IMG/VR virus record: IMGVR_UViG_3300024317_000004
Location: 8,418-72,417 of that record
DNA: 64,000 nucleotides
From: a virus
Direction: 5' to 3' (one strand)
Shown: positions 7,626 through 54,693 of the stretch, piece after piece
Layout of the letters: each line of letters begins with the position of its first letter
Numbering within the stretch: the stretch's first letter is position 1
Notes under the pieces: generated by a model
Seen by the model: only the letters and a program-made list of their open reading frames with translations
What the model was told of the DNA's origin: nothing
The model's database searches: none
Position numbers and translations under genes: made by a program

Positions 7626-8770
7626 AGTACAAGCATCAAACTTGGCGTAAATTGTACATCAAGGAAGAGGGTGCTTTTGCGAAGCTCCCGTTCACCGCAC
7701 GTGCCTACGCGAAACAGCTCATGCTTCTCTGTGATGGTGCGGGTCGGATTCATGTGGGCAATGGAGACGACTGCGTCAAGCTACTCGTAGAGACGGCTGG
7801 ATTCCGTATCGGTGCCACGCGTGGAGACCGTCGGATGATGAGCACGATGTTCCCTATGCTCTTCGAAGAGGGCTACCTGGTTCATCGAAGTCCTTACGTT
7901 GTCATTCGAAACTTTGTAGCAGCTCAGCGCAAGTGGTCCGACGACGAAGAACAACCCCCCGGCTCTGACGATTCGTCCACGATCGTTCCACCATCCAGCA
8001 ATGAAGCTGCAGCGAACCCACCACGAACCGGTAATGAAGCTGCAACGACCGAGCAACGACCGAGCAATGACGGTGCAACGAACGGGGAACGAACGGGGAA
8101 CGAACCGACCACTGAACAAGAGCTAAGTACGCTAAATCATTCAGATGACGTTGCTAGCGCGCACACGCGCGCGCTCAGTTCTGATCTGAGTAGTTCTGAT
8201 CTGAGTAGTTTTGAGATGAAGGGGGTGCAGGGGGAACAACAGCAGCCGATCGATAAGCCAGAGACCGATCCGGCAATCACTCCGGCATCTGGCGATGCCT
8301 CCGCGCCGCACAAAAAAACAAAGCGCCGAAAGCCCAAAGCCCCTGCCCCGGAAGTCCCGATCCCTGAACCGGGCACGGTTGCCAGGTCAGTCTACGACGC
8401 GATCGTTAACGACCCGATCCTGGGACCGATCACGGCAGGCCCTGCTGACTTCGCCGTACGCATCACTCACCCGGACGCATACCCAGGCGTCAACGTGCTG
8501 GCGGAAGTCCTACGCGCCGCAGAGCACTACGCTCGCGGCAAGCGGGTCTACACCGATGGCCGCAGAACGCTTGCCAACTGGCTTCGCGGCGAGGCCGAAA
8601 AAGAAGCCAGTCGGCCCAAGCCAACTCCGAACCAACTAGCGCTTGGAGCCAAGAAAACCAAAGGCCCGCTTGATCCAGCACCCGCGAGCAAGTTCACGCG
8701 ACCCGGCGAATCGTACGACCCGTTCAGTTTGTACAACGCCGATGGCAGCCCGAAGGGAGCGACGCAGTGA
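7622..8770 (+). CDS. phage replication initiator protein
   Basis: upstream of a DnaC-like ATPase; low-complexity middle containing DNA repeats. Confidence 0.65.
   Translation: MKYKHQTWRKLYIKEEGAFAKLPFTARAYAKQLMLLCDGAGRIHVGNGDDCVKLLVETAGFRIGATRGDRRMMSTMFPMLFEEGYLVHRSPYVVIRNFVAAQRKWSDDEEQPPGSDDSSTIVPPSSNEAAANPPRTGNEAATTEQRPSNDGATNGERTGNEPTTEQELSTLNHSDDVASAHTRALSSDLSSSDLSSFEMKGVQGEQQQPIDKPETDPAITPASGDASAPHKKTKRRKPKAPAPEVPIPEPGTVARSVYDAIVNDPILGPITAGPADFAVRITHPDAYPGVNVLAEVLRAAEHYARGKRVYTDGRRTLANWLRGEAEKEASRPKPTPNQLALGAKKTKGPLDPAPASKFTRPGESYDPFSLYNADGSPKGATQ
7998..8208 (+). repeat. iteron-like repeats, probable replication origin
   Basis: AATGAAGCTGCA repeats, tandem AACGAACGGGG, tandem TCTGATCTGAGTAGT inside the initiator gene. 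Confidence 0.6.
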
Positions 8771-50379: not shown

Positions 50380-51177
50380 ATGGAAAAGTGGAGTGAACCG
50401 AAAGGGCCACCACCGCGATGGCTCGACCTTGCCGACGAAGTCACGGCCGACGAGCCGAAGCCGCCTCGTGACCAGTTCGTCGTGGCGTGCATGGAGGCGT
50501 GCTTGCGACTCGATTGCAACCCGATGCAAGCGGCAGGCGTCACGGCCAACGTGATGAACGAGAGTGCGTGGGGGCAGTCGTATCGCGGCAATAACTTGGG
50601 TGGCTGGAAGATCTACGAGCACTACGCGATCGCGTATCGCAAGGCTCATGGCAAAGGACCACGCTGGTGGCGCGGTCCCGGCAACAAAGCGCCTGGGGCC
50701 ACACCGAAAGACCTCAAAGGGGGCGATCCGCCGTGGTGCTTCTACAGAGCGTTCGAGTCCATCGAGGACTTTCTCGCGAGCTGGCTCAAGACGTTCGTTC
50801 CAGAGCCGCCCCTTGGTACGCCCTCTCGCGAGAGCAAAGGCGATCCCGCAACGGGTGATTACCGACTTGCGGGTGAACGATTTTGGGGCCGTCGGGCCAA
50901 TTGGTTCGATGCCATGGTTGCGGCCGGGTACAAGGGCTCGCGCACCGAAGCGAGTCCCGAGCAAGCGATTGCCGAACATCACAGTTTGGTGCAGTCCGCC
51001 TTAACTCGCTGGGGGCAATCACGTTTAGGCGTGACGGCTGACGGAGCCTGGGGGCCCAAAAGCAAAACGGCCTGCGCCGCGTTTCAGGCTTGGCACGGAC
51101 TGTCGGTCACGAACATTCTAGACGACGAGACGCTGGTTGCTTTGGTGCACAGCAAACAACAGCCCCAACCAGAGTGA
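50380..51177 (+). CDS. endolysin (glucosaminidase/lysozyme-like plus peptidoglycan-binding domain)
   Basis: NESAWG...NNLGG...YRAFES...AAGY; C-terminal ADGAWGPKS...FQAWHGL. Confidence 0.8.
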   Translation: MEKWSEPKGPPPRWLDLADEVTADEPKPPRDQFVVACMEACLRLDCNPMQAAGVTANVMNESAWGQSYRGNNLGGWKIYEHYAIAYRKAHGKGPRWWRGPGNKAPGATPKDLKGGDPPWCFYRAFESIEDFLASWLKTFVPEPPLGTPSRESKGDPATGDYRLAGERFWGRRANWFDAMVAAGYKGSRTEASPEQAIAEHHSLVQSALTRWGQSRLGVTADGAWGPKSKTACAAFQAWHGLSVTNILDDETLVALVHSKQQPQPE

Positions 51178-51179
51178 CC

Positions 51180-51957
51180 TGGTTGGGGCCATTCCCTGTC
51201 CCTTCCGCTCCTTTGCAGTCCTGCCCCATCCGCTCCATTGCCATCGGTTGCAATGAGGCCCGTTCCTCTCGTAGCCCCTCCCGTCCTATCCATTCCACTC
51301 GGTTGCTGTCGCTTGCTCTCCCCTCCGTCCCCCTGCTTTGCCCGAGCCTTCGCCCGGCTCCGATGCAGCACGCTGCACCCGAGTCGAGCCACCGGCGAAC
51401 CGGCGAACTCGGGGCCTTTGCGATCCTTTCCCCTGCTGTCCTGACCTGTCCGCATCCCATCGGCTCCCCTCCCCTCCCCAACGCTCCCCATTAGCGCTCG
51501 GGACGAGGCCCGGATTGCTCCGGGCGCCGTTGGGCTCCACTCCTGTCCGGTTCACTCCGTTGCCGCCCTTGCCTCTGCTTTCCGCTCCCCTCTGCCCCAA
51601 TGCAGTCCGTCGTTTCCAACGCACTCGCTTGAATGCGCTCGAAACGGCGCTCGCGCGAACGCGATGCCGGCCATTCCGTTCCTCCCCGGCCCAATCATGT
51701 CATTCCCAGGCCGCTCCCATGCTCTGCAGTCGGCCCCCCTCCATCGCGTTCCGCTTCACCCCAGTACACATCCACTCCTCTCCCCTCTCCAAAGCACCTG
51801 AATGCTCTCGAGACGGGACCCGATCTCTCGGGACACGTCGCCTTTCCTCTGCGGTCCGTTCACTTGCTCTCCGGTGCCGTCCCATCACTTCCTTTGCAGC
51901 CAACTCTCGTCCTGCCCACTCCCCGCTTTTCCTCTCCGCTCCACCCCTCTGCCGTCC
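51180..51957 (-). ncRNA. array of about five pentamer-repeat (GGA/GCA/GGG + NN) units separated by tetraloop hairpins; candidate guide RNAs
   Basis: 5-nt periodicity on the minus strand, e.g. GGACG GCAGA GGGGT GGAGC GGAGA GGAAA...; four hairpin separators with a shared 3' motif. Confidence 0.8.
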
Positions 51958-51972
51958 GAAGTCTAAAAAGAA

Positions 51973-52569
51973 TTATGCGGCTTTCTTTGCTAGGTCGCCG
52001 TCCCAGCAAACGACCGCGAAAATCCCGAACGGACCACCACGCTGAACTCTGTAGTCGCCGAGACCGTTTCCGATGCCGGCCTCTTCGAGCAAGAGCCTGA
52101 TAGTTGCTTCATCCAAGATCTCCGTACGCAACCGAAGATTGAACTTAGCGCTCCATTCGTCGAGCCGCGCACGATGTCTCATGACGCGGCCTTTTGTTGC
52201 GGGAATTACGACCGCTCGGCTGTCAACCTCGAAGTCCTTTGCGCGAGTTTTTCGGTCCTTGAGATACAAGGGCACCATGTCTTCGCAAACCACGCACGCA
52301 GCGGGCACGAGATACTTTAAGGACTTGCGAGATCCTCGCTGTTTGTGTCCAGCGCCCATTTCGGCGATTGCGCGGCTAATCCCAGTACCTGCGATGCATA
52401 GTCCGCCCTTAGAGTCGCGATGCGTGCCTTTCTCGGCAATGTCTCGCGGCAACTCTGTGGTGATCTGCACGCGACGTGTTGATTTTCCACTGTCCGCCTG
52501 CGCCTGATCGCCAAACTTGTGAATCAGCAACGGCGAAACGCCCTCGATCCAGACCTCAATCGTTTTCAC
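51973..52569 (-). CDS. solo RAMP/Cas7-like protein (VIPR-type effector candidate)
   Basis: N-terminal IEGVSPLLIH, RHRARLDEWSAKF strand, C-terminal G-loop AGIGNGLGDYRVQRGGPFGIF; RBS GGAGG. Confidence 0.8.
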   Translation of the reverse strand: MKTIEVWIEGVSPLLIHKFGDQAQADSGKSTRRVQITTELPRDIAEKGTHRDSKGGLCIAGTGISRAIAEMGAGHKQRGSRKSLKYLVPAACVVCEDMVPLYLKDRKTRAKDFEVDSRAVVIPATKGRVMRHRARLDEWSAKFNLRLRTEILDEATIRLLLEEAGIGNGLGDYRVQRGGPFGIFAVVCWDGDLAKKAA

Positions 52570-52582
52570 TTTGCCTCCATTA

Positions 52583-52652
52583 AGCCCTTTCGGGCCCCTT
52601 CCATTCCCCCGCTCTCCATCCCCACCACTTGCTCTCCTTCGTGTTCCAGTCC
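52583..52652 (-). ncRNA. leader pentamer-repeat unit upstream of the RAMP gene
   Basis: GGACT GGAAC ACGAA GGAGA GCAAG TGGTG GGGAT GGAGA GCGGG GGAAT GGAAG, then hairpin GCCC-GAAA-GGGC. Confidence 0.7.
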
Positions 52653-52661
52653 AACGCGCAC

Positions 52662-52690
52662 ACTATACGTACTTTGTACGTACAAGCAAG
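52662..52690 (-). promoter_or_regulatory. promoter of the RAMP/array transcript
   Basis: TTGCTT-N16-TATAGT on the minus strand, containing two GTACGTA boxes. Confidence 0.6.
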
Positions 52691-52855
52691 TTACTTCTTT
52701 ACTTCTCGTAGCAATCGTCTTGCTTCGAACAACGCAATGCGTCTGACGAACGACGACACATCTTCACCTGATAATTCTGCGGCTTTCGCGAGATCTCGCT
52801 TTTCCGCTTCCGTGAGACGCAACTCGAGACGCGCCGACCGACCGGACTCAACCAT
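52691..52855 (-). CDS. ribbon-helix-helix regulator (DUF1778/MobC-like), 54 aa, absent from the ORF track
   Basis: MVESGRSARLELRLTEAEKRDLAKAAELSGEDVSSFVRRIAL; upstream TGGCCA-N17-TATGAT. Confidence 0.75.
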   Translation of the reverse strand: MVESGRSARLELRLTEAEKRDLAKAAELSGEDVSSFVRRIALFEARRLLREVKK

Positions 52856-53047
52856 AGGCCAATCATACGGCTACCATACGTACATGGCCACGGCGATATC
52901 ACGGAAGGTTACAGAAGCACGTAAAACGACGGCGCGGCTCAAGGAGCTTGGCTACAAGCTAGGGCAGTGGGTAGACGCCCCGCCAGCCGACGTGCCATAG
53001 TTCGACCGTTCGGCACGACGTTGTCCGTGACGTGTTGAGCTCCTGAG

Positions 53048-53285
53048 ACGGCCTGGTCACCCGCCAGGCCGTTTTGCTTTTGCGCTAGACATCCCGCCGT
53101 CACGCTGGCACAGTCCCCATCAGAAGCGTTTCTCGCAAGAGGAACTACCGCACGATTCGCCCTGGCCCTCACCGGCTAGGGCGTTTTGCTATTTCTGGCA
53201 CGCCGTGCGACGGTCCATCGTACACTTTCACACGTAGATGGGACTGATACGAGGCCTTGGCATGGTGCTGAGGCCTTTTGTTTTT
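53048..53285 (+). terminator. three tandem intrinsic terminator-like hairpins
   Basis: ACGGCCTGG..CCAGGCCGT+TTTG; CGCCCTGGCC..GGCTAGGGCG+TTTT; AGGCCTTGGCA..TGCTGAGGCCT+TTTGTTTTT. Confidence 0.55.
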
Positions 53286-53554
53286 GTGGCACACTGGAGC
53301 CAAGGGATCCGCTGCTCTGGATTATCCCGGGGATAGCAGGTCGCTTACCTAAGGCACGCCGGTCCGTGGCACAGAACCGCGGGCCGGGGTGTTATGCTTG
53401 CGTCAATCCGTTTGCCTGGGCGATGGGCCCGCGCACGTAACAGGCGTAGGGCCACACGGAGTGGGATCCGCGTTACGCGGGTCGTGCACAGACCCGGAGG
53501 CGAAAGCAGCCGGGTGCTTGTGCATGCGAGTTTGCGGGGAGTTTGAGGGAGCCT

Positions 53555-54433
53555 TCACATCTCGCCCAACGCTCGTGCCATGGCCTCGGCGACGCGTTTC
53601 CAGTCGTATCCCTGCACGTGAATCGTCACGCTCGCTTCGACGGTCGAGCCGTACGTAATCTGGATCTCTTGCCGCCGCTCAGTCGCATCGACGGTAACGA
53701 CGCGACCGTTGATCAGTGCGCTGTACCGTCCCCCGTTCAGATCTTCCCATACGACATCGCTCATAGTTTTTGTGTCCCCTTCCCCTTCCAACAACCTCGT
53801 TTGCAGTTCTGCCGTCTCGGCATACATGAGGCATTTGCCGGTAAACTTACCATTGCTATAGATTGGCAAATCGTGGAATGGGTATTGTTCCAAGGATCGC
53901 CTTACCATCTCATTGGTCTCGGCAGCATTGAGGTACTGTCTCGTCTTATTCAACCACACGTACTCGTCATCCGTAGTTGCCGATGGGCCAGAAACAAAAG
54001 CATACGCTTGTCCGTAGGCTATAGCGTTAACGAGGACGCTGCTTACGCCAAACATTTTGCCAATCTTCTTCGTGGATAGGCTGTGTGTTCTGTAGATTTT
54101 TCTAATCTCTCTTACCTCATCGTCACTCAGCTTCCTGTATTGCCTCCCCTTCTCGATCATGTCCTTTGTGTTGGCTTTAGAGTCGCCTACGAATAGGTGG
54201 CCCCAGTTGCAGCAGGGCGGGTTGTCGCATGAATGGCAGATGAACATTCCGTCGGGAATAGGACCAACAGCGAGTTCCCACGCGGCCCTGTGAGCCGCGT
54301 ATTGTTTCTTGCGATCTTCCCAGTAAACGCGGCCGTACCCGTTTCTATTTGTAGGCCCAGTCCACACGATGCACCCGCTATCGTTGTCGTGGGTGCACTT
54401 CGCATAAAGATCGCTGATCGTTTTCAGCATCAT
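53555..54433 (-). CDS. HNH homing endonuclease with C-terminal extension
   Basis: CIVWTG...GYG...AHRAAWE...CHSCDNPPCCNWGHL...N..DM. Confidence 0.85.
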   Translation of the reverse strand: MMLKTISDLYAKCTHDNDSGCIVWTGPTNRNGYGRVYWEDRKKQYAAHRAAWELAVGPIPDGMFICHSCDNPPCCNWGHLFVGDSKANTKDMIEKGRQYRKLSDDEVREIRKIYRTHSLSTKKIGKMFGVSSVLVNAIAYGQAYAFVSGPSATTDDEYVWLNKTRQYLNAAETNEMVRRSLEQYPFHDLPIYSNGKFTGKCLMYAETAELQTRLLEGEGDTKTMSDVVWEDLNGGRYSALINGRVVTVDATERRQEIQITYGSTVEASVTIHVQGYDWKRVAEAMARALGEM

Positions 54434-54441
54434 CTTGGCCT

Positions 54442-54693
54442 CTAACTTCCTGCCCGTTTCTTTGATTTCTTCTCCTGACCCCATCCTGGCTTGCGCAACG
54501 TAAGCCCCTCGGCAAGCTCGGGCTGTTCTTGCACCCACGTCTGCAGAGTGCGCCTGCCGATCCCGAGCCTCTCGGCGGCTTTGGGCACGCTGCCTTCGGC
54601 CTTCAGCGCCCTGCTGATCTTCAGCCTGAACGCCTCGGGGTCCGTTGCTCGCAGGGCTAGTAAAGCGTGCGTGGCGGGATGGGTGATAGCCAT
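54442..54693 (-). CDS. HTH regulator
   Basis: GSVPKAAERLGIGRRTLQTW. Confidence 0.75.
   Translation of the reverse strand: MAITHPATHALLALRATDPEAFRLKISRALKAEGSVPKAAERLGIGRRTLQTWVQEQPELAEGLTLRKPGWGQEKKSKKRAGS

Follow-up and report, generated by a model that had tools for sequence, protein, structure and literature searches.

A phage VIPR locus with GGA-type repeats and a guide block that closely resembles codons 42-51 of its own vipr gene

Introduction

The closest described relatives of the locus reported here are the VIPR systems (for Viral Interference Programmable Repeat), whose type II exemplars are those of Escherichia phage SUSP1 and a Pseudomonas fulva prophage (10.64898/2026.04.26.720920; 10.64898/2026.04.26.720927). 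In these systems Vipr, a small RAMP protein, polymerises on a guide RNA (vrRNA) built of GGY-NN pentamers; the two variable bases of each pentamer (NN) pair with DNA, every third target base is skipped (a 1-nt skip), and binding silences transcription, from either strand within coding DNA (10.64898/2026.04.26.720920). Natural targets are mostly coding sequences in which the skip falls on the codon wobble position, according to the 2026 VIPR preprints; the criterion for a natural target is 80%, and the surveys report no self-targeting at or above this level. Phages of the SUSP1 family also have guides directed at vipr genes and others directed at vrRNAs; about 90% of the vipr-directed ones are wobble-aligned, and matches to self score lower than matches to rivals (10.64898/2026.10.15.759431). 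Here we describe a VIPR locus in a 64,000-nt stretch (positions 8,418 to 72,417, hereafter the window) of IMG/VR virus record IMGVR_UViG_3300024317_000004, a soil phage genome of 72,417 bases that is rated complete. One of its guide tracts opens with ten units that closely match, two bases in every three, a conserved motif of the vipr gene that lies next to the tract.

A related architecture is known from class 1 CRISPR systems, in which the RAMP subunits of the Cas7 backbone polymerise on the crRNA and a thumb periodically interrupts pairing between guide and target. VIPR shares with them the RAMP polymer on a guide RNA and the periodically interrupted pairing, but its period is 5 nt of RNA to 3 nt of DNA, compared with 6 and 6 for Cas7, and the locus described here has no CRISPR repeats, cas operon or spacer-repeat array. 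The kind of system, its code and the idea of a vipr-directed guide are already published; what is modestly unusual here is the GGA repeat, together with a putative anti-vipr block that comes close to matching self in a phage that has kept its own vipr.

The vipr gene and its guide tracts

The gene and the tracts of pentamers on either side of it are as follows.

51973 to 52569, minus strand: vipr gene, 198 aa, matching phrog_4652 and, by profile, PDB 36pp_D
52598 to 52652, minus strand: guide tract U0, upstream of vipr, 11 pentamers; a small hairpin (52597-52583) and then the vipr ribosome-binding site come after it
51957 to 51838, minus strand: guide tract U1, 24 pentamers
51790 to 51837, minus strand: 3' tail of U1, two hairpins, fold of -21.8 kcal/mol, z=-2.5 against shuffles
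51788 to 51673, minus strand: guide tract U2 with structured tail, from pentamer calling and the fold of the tail
51608 to 51534, minus strand: guide tract U3 with structured tail, 15 pentamers
51487 to 51417, minus strand: guide tract U4 with structured tail, from pentamer calling and the fold of the tail
51331 to 51192, minus strand: guide tract U5 with structured tail, 28 pentamers

The open reading frame begins with a GTG at 52569 and has a GGAGG ribosome-binding site 5 nt upstream. The initial annotation called it a RAMP gene, which can now be made more specific, as the product is a Vipr protein. Pfam and NCBIfam searches returned no family for it, including no Cas family, and its match in PHROGs, phrog_4652 (E=7.1e-17), is a family of unknown function. 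Homologues were numerous (331 at E<=1e-3), and a profile of 50 of them matched PDB 36pp_D, the SUSP1 Vipr protein, at E=5e-9, aligning query residues 1-186 with chain residues 1-187. Its identity to SUSP1 Vipr is low, and the single protein as query reached 36pp at only E=7.8e-4; with such a query no close relatives were found in viral_contigs. The residues H17, R138, D177, W178 and R179 of SUSP1 Vipr hold two guanines of the repeat (10.64898/2026.04.26.720927), and they align with H17, R133, D172, Y173 and R174 of this protein. Among the 50 homologues R133 and R174 are invariant, and Y173 provides an aromatic residue in place of SUSP1 W178. The most conserved N-terminal motif of the Vipr family is PRxxAEKxxYRD, in which P41 is invariant and R42, A45, E46, Y50 and R51 are each conserved in at least 90% of the same homologues.

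Eight tract pieces were called, all on the minus strand, representing about six units, one upstream of vipr and about five downstream, with 114 pentamers in total and no gene between vipr and the array. Hairpin-forming tails separate the units, and those of U1 and U2 have two hairpins each (z=-2.5 and -2.9). For comparison we used 80 related viral loci; of the 217 tracts called in them, 215 share the strand of the gene (57 lie upstream of it and 158 downstream). Because of the profile match to PDB 36pp, the aligned RNA-contact residues, the 114 gene-strand pentamers and the tract layout of the related loci, the locus is, judged from its sequence, a phage VIPR system with a Vipr RAMP protein and vrRNA guide tracts. 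It resembles SUSP1 VIPR in being phage-borne, in its single small RAMP protein, a homologue of SUSP1 Vipr, in its gene-strand 5-nt units of three constant and two variable bases, in having one tract upstream and an array downstream, and in its structured 3' tails. It differs in the constant part, which is GGA and looser rather than GGY, and it departs from published VIPR in that no recognisable vap gene was found at the locus, a ribbon-helix-helix gene being present upstream instead.

The start of the first downstream guide tract resembles the vipr gene

U1 is purine-rich and starts 15 nt past the vipr stop codon. Its parts, and the site to which it is compared, are:

51908 to 51957, minus strand: U1 pentamers 1-10, the matching block, GG-initial in 8 of 10 units
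51838 to 51907, minus strand: U1 pentamers 11-24, register kept, with a poorer constant part (GG-initial in 6 of 14 units) and no vipr match
52417 to 52446, minus strand: vipr site read by the guide block, codons 42-51, RDIAEKGTHR, within the conserved motif PRxxAEKxxYRD

The first ten pentamers are GGAcg GCAga GGGgt GGAgc GGAga GGAaa AGCgg GGAgt GGGca GGAcg, with variable dinucleotides CG GA GT GC GA AA GG GT CA CG, and the minus strand of vipr from 52446 to 52417 reads CGA GAC ATT GCC GAG AAA GGC ACG CAT CGC. When the third base of each codon is ignored, 17 of 20 read positions agree (2, 2, 1, 2, 2, 2, 2, 0, 2 and 2 in units 1 to 10), in frame (offset 0) and with the wobble base of each codon as the one skipped. 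This alignment is exactly the one proposed in the initial annotation, which was also right that it starts at the first pentamer, places its skip on the wobble position and decays after the tenth dinucleotide; the skip-every-third-base register that it described is the published 1-nt-skip rule of VIPR (10.64898/2026.04.26.720920). Rules with a skip of 0 or 2 give at most 15 in the gene, so the score of 17/20 is specific to the 1-nt skip, and the sole notable match at this locus thus follows VIPR practice both in its skip and in having that skip fall on wobble bases. All three mismatches are transitions: in two the guide has G where the gene has A, and in one it has T where the gene has C. They had been described as compatible with G:T or U:G pairing, and with such pairs allowed the ten-unit block does score 20/20.

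Decoded as codons, the block spells R-D/E-V-A-D/E-K/N-G-V-H/Q-R, with Val at codons 44 and 49, where the gene itself encodes Ile44 and Thr49. Val occurs at position 44 in 7 of the 50 homologues and at position 49 in 12, and Thr49 in one. The guide also spells Gly48 and His50, each of them a minority state (5/50) that this protein shares with its closest relative, P0002. The latter is 85% identical and reads RDIAEKGVHR, its Val49 agreeing with the guide GT where the phage's own codon is ACG. Because the P0002 protein reads in this way, the ten-unit block could score up to 19/20 on its gene, a value deduced from the protein alone.

Because the block fits relatives better than it fits self, which is the pattern published for rival-directed guides, we favour, tentatively and with a probability of roughly 0.45, the reading that it is an anti-vipr guide module aimed at the alleles of rival phages. 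The first ten units of U1 would then be a non-accidental "read two, skip one" copy of the conserved vipr motif. We infer that the block would act as a guide by itself and that rivals would be its target: a Vipr-vrRNA filament carrying it would bind the vipr coding DNA of related rivals at codons 42-51, and the bound filament would keep the rival's vipr, and the guide array downstream of it, from being transcribed. The phage's own vipr would be a near-match, with Ile44 and Thr49 where the guide spells Val, and this copy may either escape the binding or tolerate it.

The block has several properties in common with guides of this kind. As in the vipr-directed vrRNAs of the SUSP1 family, it would be aimed at the first quarter of the vipr coding sequence and is wobble-aligned, and as in published vipr-directed vrRNAs its self score (85%) is lower than the best possible score on the nearest relative (95%). 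At 30 bp it is in principle not too short, because the footprint published for a working guide, SUSP1 vrRNA4, is 18 bp. It differs from the published guides in two respects. The published ones are on phages that have lost vipr (solo vrRNAs; 10.64898/2026.10.15.759431), whereas the phage here keeps it, and along their entire length they pass an identity threshold of 0.8 to actual sequences, whereas here 10 of 24 units match and the rival score of 19/20 comes from a protein only. If the rival-directed reading is right, VIPR-against-VIPR conflict, described for enterobacterial SUSP1-family phages, would extend to soil phages far removed from these, a guide that is one or two codons short of self-targeting could be present in a phage with a vipr of its own, and long pentamer tracts could be read as modules rather than as one guide.

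Shuffle statistics and the case for coincidence

The match could instead be a coincidence, with U1 an ordinary 24-unit guide against some other target and the likeness of its first ten dinucleotides to a purine-rich, codon-like part of the gene next to it an accident. We regard this as a serious possibility, though on the doubtful side, and under it the locus would simply be one more VIPR system. Shuffled guides, half of them shuffled by dinucleotide order and half by base (n=4000), were scored in the gene, with all 10-unit windows of all tracts compared with both of its strands. Only 3 of the 4000 reached 17/20, and none reached 20/20 with G:T and U:G pairs allowed, so the concern raised in the initial annotation that shuffled guides might often do equally well inside this gene was not borne out. 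The real score is also above that of the 215 natural tracts of the relatives, which reach at most 15/20 on this vipr gene.

The result depends strongly on the space that is searched. Under the strict rule, 17/20 was reached somewhere in the 72-kb genome by 88 of 400 shuffles (22%), and by 6 of 400 when only tract-initial windows were counted. This agrees with the earlier remark that such a match could arise by chance in 64 kb and deserves notice for lying in the cognate gene. Local-segment scoring gave the same contrast: window-wide, the real score was equalled in 41-86% of shuffles (P=0.41 with a mismatch score of -1 and 0.855 with -2), or P=0.115 and 0.265 when anchored at the first pentamer, while in the gene the corresponding values were P=0.001-0.004 and 0.014-0.02, and P=0-0.002 with the anchor (1000 shuffles each). 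The match is nevertheless the best 10-unit match of any tract in the genome, and when both strands of the window were checked, as had been proposed earlier, the ten-unit prefix reached 16/20 nowhere else. If G:T and U:G pairs are counted, the real site was the only match in the window scoring at least 18, and a score of 20 was reached anywhere in it by 4 of 300 shuffles; the permissive rule is post hoc, because the mismatches themselves suggested it and it was picked after they had been seen.

As a match, then, it is unremarkable, and what is remarkable is its location in the cognate gene and its phasing. Against coincidence, besides the low in-gene frequencies, are the in-frame, wobble-phased and tract-initial position, the restriction of the match to the 1-nt skip rule, and three mismatches that are all transitions toward alleles present in relatives. 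On the other side, the ten-unit window, the wobble rule and the start at pentamer 1 were all noticed post hoc. Taking these points together, we consider the sequence relationship of the block to vipr to be probably real.

Extent of the match and searches for targets

Several results weigh against the rival-directed reading, beginning with the frequency of equally good chance matches across the genome given above. The match ends sharply at unit 10: units 11 to 24 match at 1, 0, 2, 1, 1, 1, 0, 0, 0, 0, 1, 1, 1 and 0 positions, or 9/28, which is the random level, and the full 24-unit tract scores 26/48 (54%) against its own vipr, below the published criterion of 80%. Read as codons, units 11 and 12 give Val and Leu, residues found at those positions in 0 and 1 of the 50 homologues. 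The poorly matching units are also those nearest the tail, and in a cryo-electron microscopy series DNA engagement starts near the 3' tail and moves to the 5' end (10.64898/2026.04.26.720927). Normal tracts in the relatives have 12-28 units before each tail, and a search of U1 for an internal boundary, tail, fold or motif by which a ten-unit RNA could be released found none; structure gives no such boundary, because the fold of the whole of U1 is no more stable than that of shuffles (z=+1.14). Among the 80 homologous genes and 120 homologue proteins compared, the U1 tract does not reach a whole-guide identity of 0.8 to the vipr of another element, higher than to self, and at the natural-target level of at least 80% of NN positions we found no full tract, only the ten-unit block of U1 on its own gene (85%).

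The searches for a better target point the same way. The initial annotation had recommended looking among homologous genes for a better full-length match, and none was found: against the 80 homologous vipr genes the whole tract reaches at most 26/48 and the ten-unit block at most 16/20, at the homologous site, and among the 120 homologue proteins listed the possible match of the whole tract is at most 31/48. The exact ten-unit pattern had no matches in viral_contigs. A degenerate version (RT at unit 3, RY at unit 8) had 35 matches in metagenome_contigs and 37 in genome_contigs, none of them in a vipr homologue as judged by tblastn, with a best full-tract score of 30/48. In the 80 related loci the best score of any tract on its own vipr is 15/20, so that none reaches 16/20; about 1.8 such matches per set would be expected from shuffles. 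When all 223 tracts were compared with all 81 vipr genes, there were six matches of 17/20 against 11-17 expected, which is no enrichment; under the wobble rule there were four of 20/20, representing two independent events of which one is the match described here, against 0.75 expected. The true rivals would be outside this 81-locus set, because its loci are only 40-55% identical.

Beyond vipr, too, the searches gave no natural target. Searches of viral_contigs with 8-unit 3' seeds, which used exact seeds of U1 and U3 and are of low sensitivity, gave 2 matches for U3 and 20 for U1, the best extensions (19/30 and 31/48) being at the random level. No full tract scores above the shuffle level in the 72-kb phage genome, in agreement with the published absence of self-targeting.

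Of the two explanations offered in the initial annotation, the better supported is that of a guide directed at a rival phage's homologous gene, by virtue of the published vipr-directed vrRNAs and of Val49 of P0002, although no better-matching DNA was found in these collections. The end of the match at unit 10 with a random remainder, the absence of any comparable self-match in the related loci, and the lack of an external target that improves on the own-gene match in the collections searched are also what coincidence would lead one to expect.

One other candidate emerged from the related loci. The first downstream tract of L042 (L042:2448-2510) scores 19/20 under the wobble-permissive rule in three successive windows against the vipr genes of L011, L013, L014, L018, L019 and L020, which belong to a different clade, at gene positions 104-140 and near the same motif. 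This 12-unit wobble-permissive match is out of codon frame and within the range of shuffles, and was taken as chance.

Autoregulation as an unlikely alternative

The second explanation in the initial annotation, partial self-targeting for autoregulation, found little support and is the least probable of those weighed here. It would have Vipr loaded with U1 settle on its own vipr at 52446-52417 through 17 Watson-Crick and three G:T or U:G pairs, forming a weak roadblock that throttles vipr and the downstream guides. Taken as a ten-unit guide, the block would exceed the published 80% criterion on this gene, and all of its mismatches could form rG:dT or rU:dG pairs. The site lies in what is probably a single transcription unit, running from a promoter-like site at 52890-52862 to the terminator at 51193-51158 and including vipr and the array, so that a roadblock, which in VIPR can act from either strand within coding DNA, would exert negative feedback on both protein and guides. 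If this were so, it would be the first case of a VIPR guide, here from a GGA-reading variant, that is directed at self and tolerates wobble pairs, and it would set the dose of Vipr filament protein and guide.

Several findings speak against it. The published surveys report no self-targeting of at least 80%, and in SUSP1 disturbing the NN pairing abolished silencing (10.64898/2026.04.26.720920). The full tract stays at 54%, and the tail-proximal units, where engagement starts in SUSP1, have no match. Because none of the 80 related loci has an own-gene match of 16/20 or more, the trait is not conserved. The gene also departs from the guide exactly where relatives agree with it, which looks like avoidance rather than use.

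GGA-type repeats

Across the 114 pentamers, G makes up 84% of position 1 and 78% of position 2 (where C accounts for 19%), A makes up 77% of position 3, and positions 4 and 5 vary. Exact GGA units number 54 of 114, and GCA, GGG and CGA are common, so that the constant part is looser than in the relatives, whose tracts are crisp GGY. In the tracts of the related loci the third base is C 2673 times, T 2456, A 204 and G 89; A does not exceed 19% in any one of the 80 loci and is nowhere in the majority. The VIPR discovery paper allows for "a related consensus" and lists NNNGG, YNNNG and NNNNG, without naming GGA, and it includes GGY>GGA among the SUSP1 substitutions said to abolish silencing (10.64898/2026.04.26.720920).

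The protein differs from its family in places that could be related to this. In SUSP1, helix-1 (E71/M72) and the G-loop around R179 form a pocket that excludes purines at the third base (10.64898/2026.04.26.720927). The helix-1 positions that align with E71/M72 are T/V-G in this protein and in P0002, compared with A-A in the family, and these two proteins alone have V and Q at positions 175 and 176, directly following R174, where the family has P175 and E176 (at least 90% conserved). The protein changes, in residues 59-62 and 175-176, and the GGA repeat may have changed together. This locus and the pocket changes of its 85% identical relative provide a natural test case for how Vipr reads the repeat.

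The looseness of the array raises another possibility, which we consider improbable, if slightly less so than autoregulation: that the block is a non-functional relic, either left over from an earlier anti-vipr guide or generated incidentally when guides are written, and fused to unrelated and partly eroded pentamers. The degenerate composition of the array compared with that of the relatives would fit this, as would the scarcity of GG-initial units in U1 after the tenth (6 of 14) and the lack of a natural target for any tract in the genome or for the two 8-unit seeds in viral_contigs. It is at odds with the first ten units being the best-formed part of the tract (GG in 8 of 10) and with an intact vipr whose RNA-contact residues are conserved. 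Near-identical pieces of the locus were also found in three soil-metagenome runs, with two single-letter differences over the parts covered, which argues against rapid decay, although one of the runs may be the source of the record. No diverged relative of the locus was found among these three runs. No RNA run with the locus was listed, which is uninformative on expression.

Other features of the locus and the phage genome

The remaining elements of the locus are:

52691 to 52855, minus strand: 54-aa ribbon-helix-helix gene, upstream of the first guide tract, TacA1-like (E=1.1e-7) and NikA-like (E=1.1e-6)
52890 to 52862, minus strand: promoter-like site, upstream of the ribbon-helix-helix gene, from a promoter scan
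51158 to 51193, minus strand: terminator-like hairpin closing the array, a 16-pair stem and then a T-rich run, -27 kcal/mol, z=-5.3

The ribbon-helix-helix protein is a predicted DNA binder and, from its sequence and position, possibly an accessory protein or regulator of the locus; it had no significant match in the 80 related loci (best E 0.18). A search of Rfam over 50900-53700 returned nothing except a 5.8S match at E=0.93. Within the tail of U2, a 36-letter piece (51634-51669) recurs with 6 differing letters on an unrelated contig found in all three soil runs, with identical flanks in each, and is perhaps a shared GC-rich hairpin or a chance likeness.

Genes near the locus include a peptidoglycan-binding lysin-like gene and an HNH endonuclease. 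The latter (53555-54538, minus strand; HNH_3, E=4.3e-12) and a small helix-turn-helix gene (54442-54693, minus strand) are about 1 kb from vipr and on the same strand. Between them and the locus, some 650 nt at 52900-53550 have no convincing gene and contain three successive plus-strand terminator-like hairpins (53054-53081, 53158-53193 and 53251-53287); this stretch matches no Rfam family and may encode small RNAs. Elsewhere in the window, a 746-aa phage protein (46275-48515, plus strand) has a glycoside hydrolase family 9 domain (E=2.5e-20) together with a cellulase N-terminal Ig-like domain, suggesting that it may be a polysaccharide-degrading tail or lysis protein.

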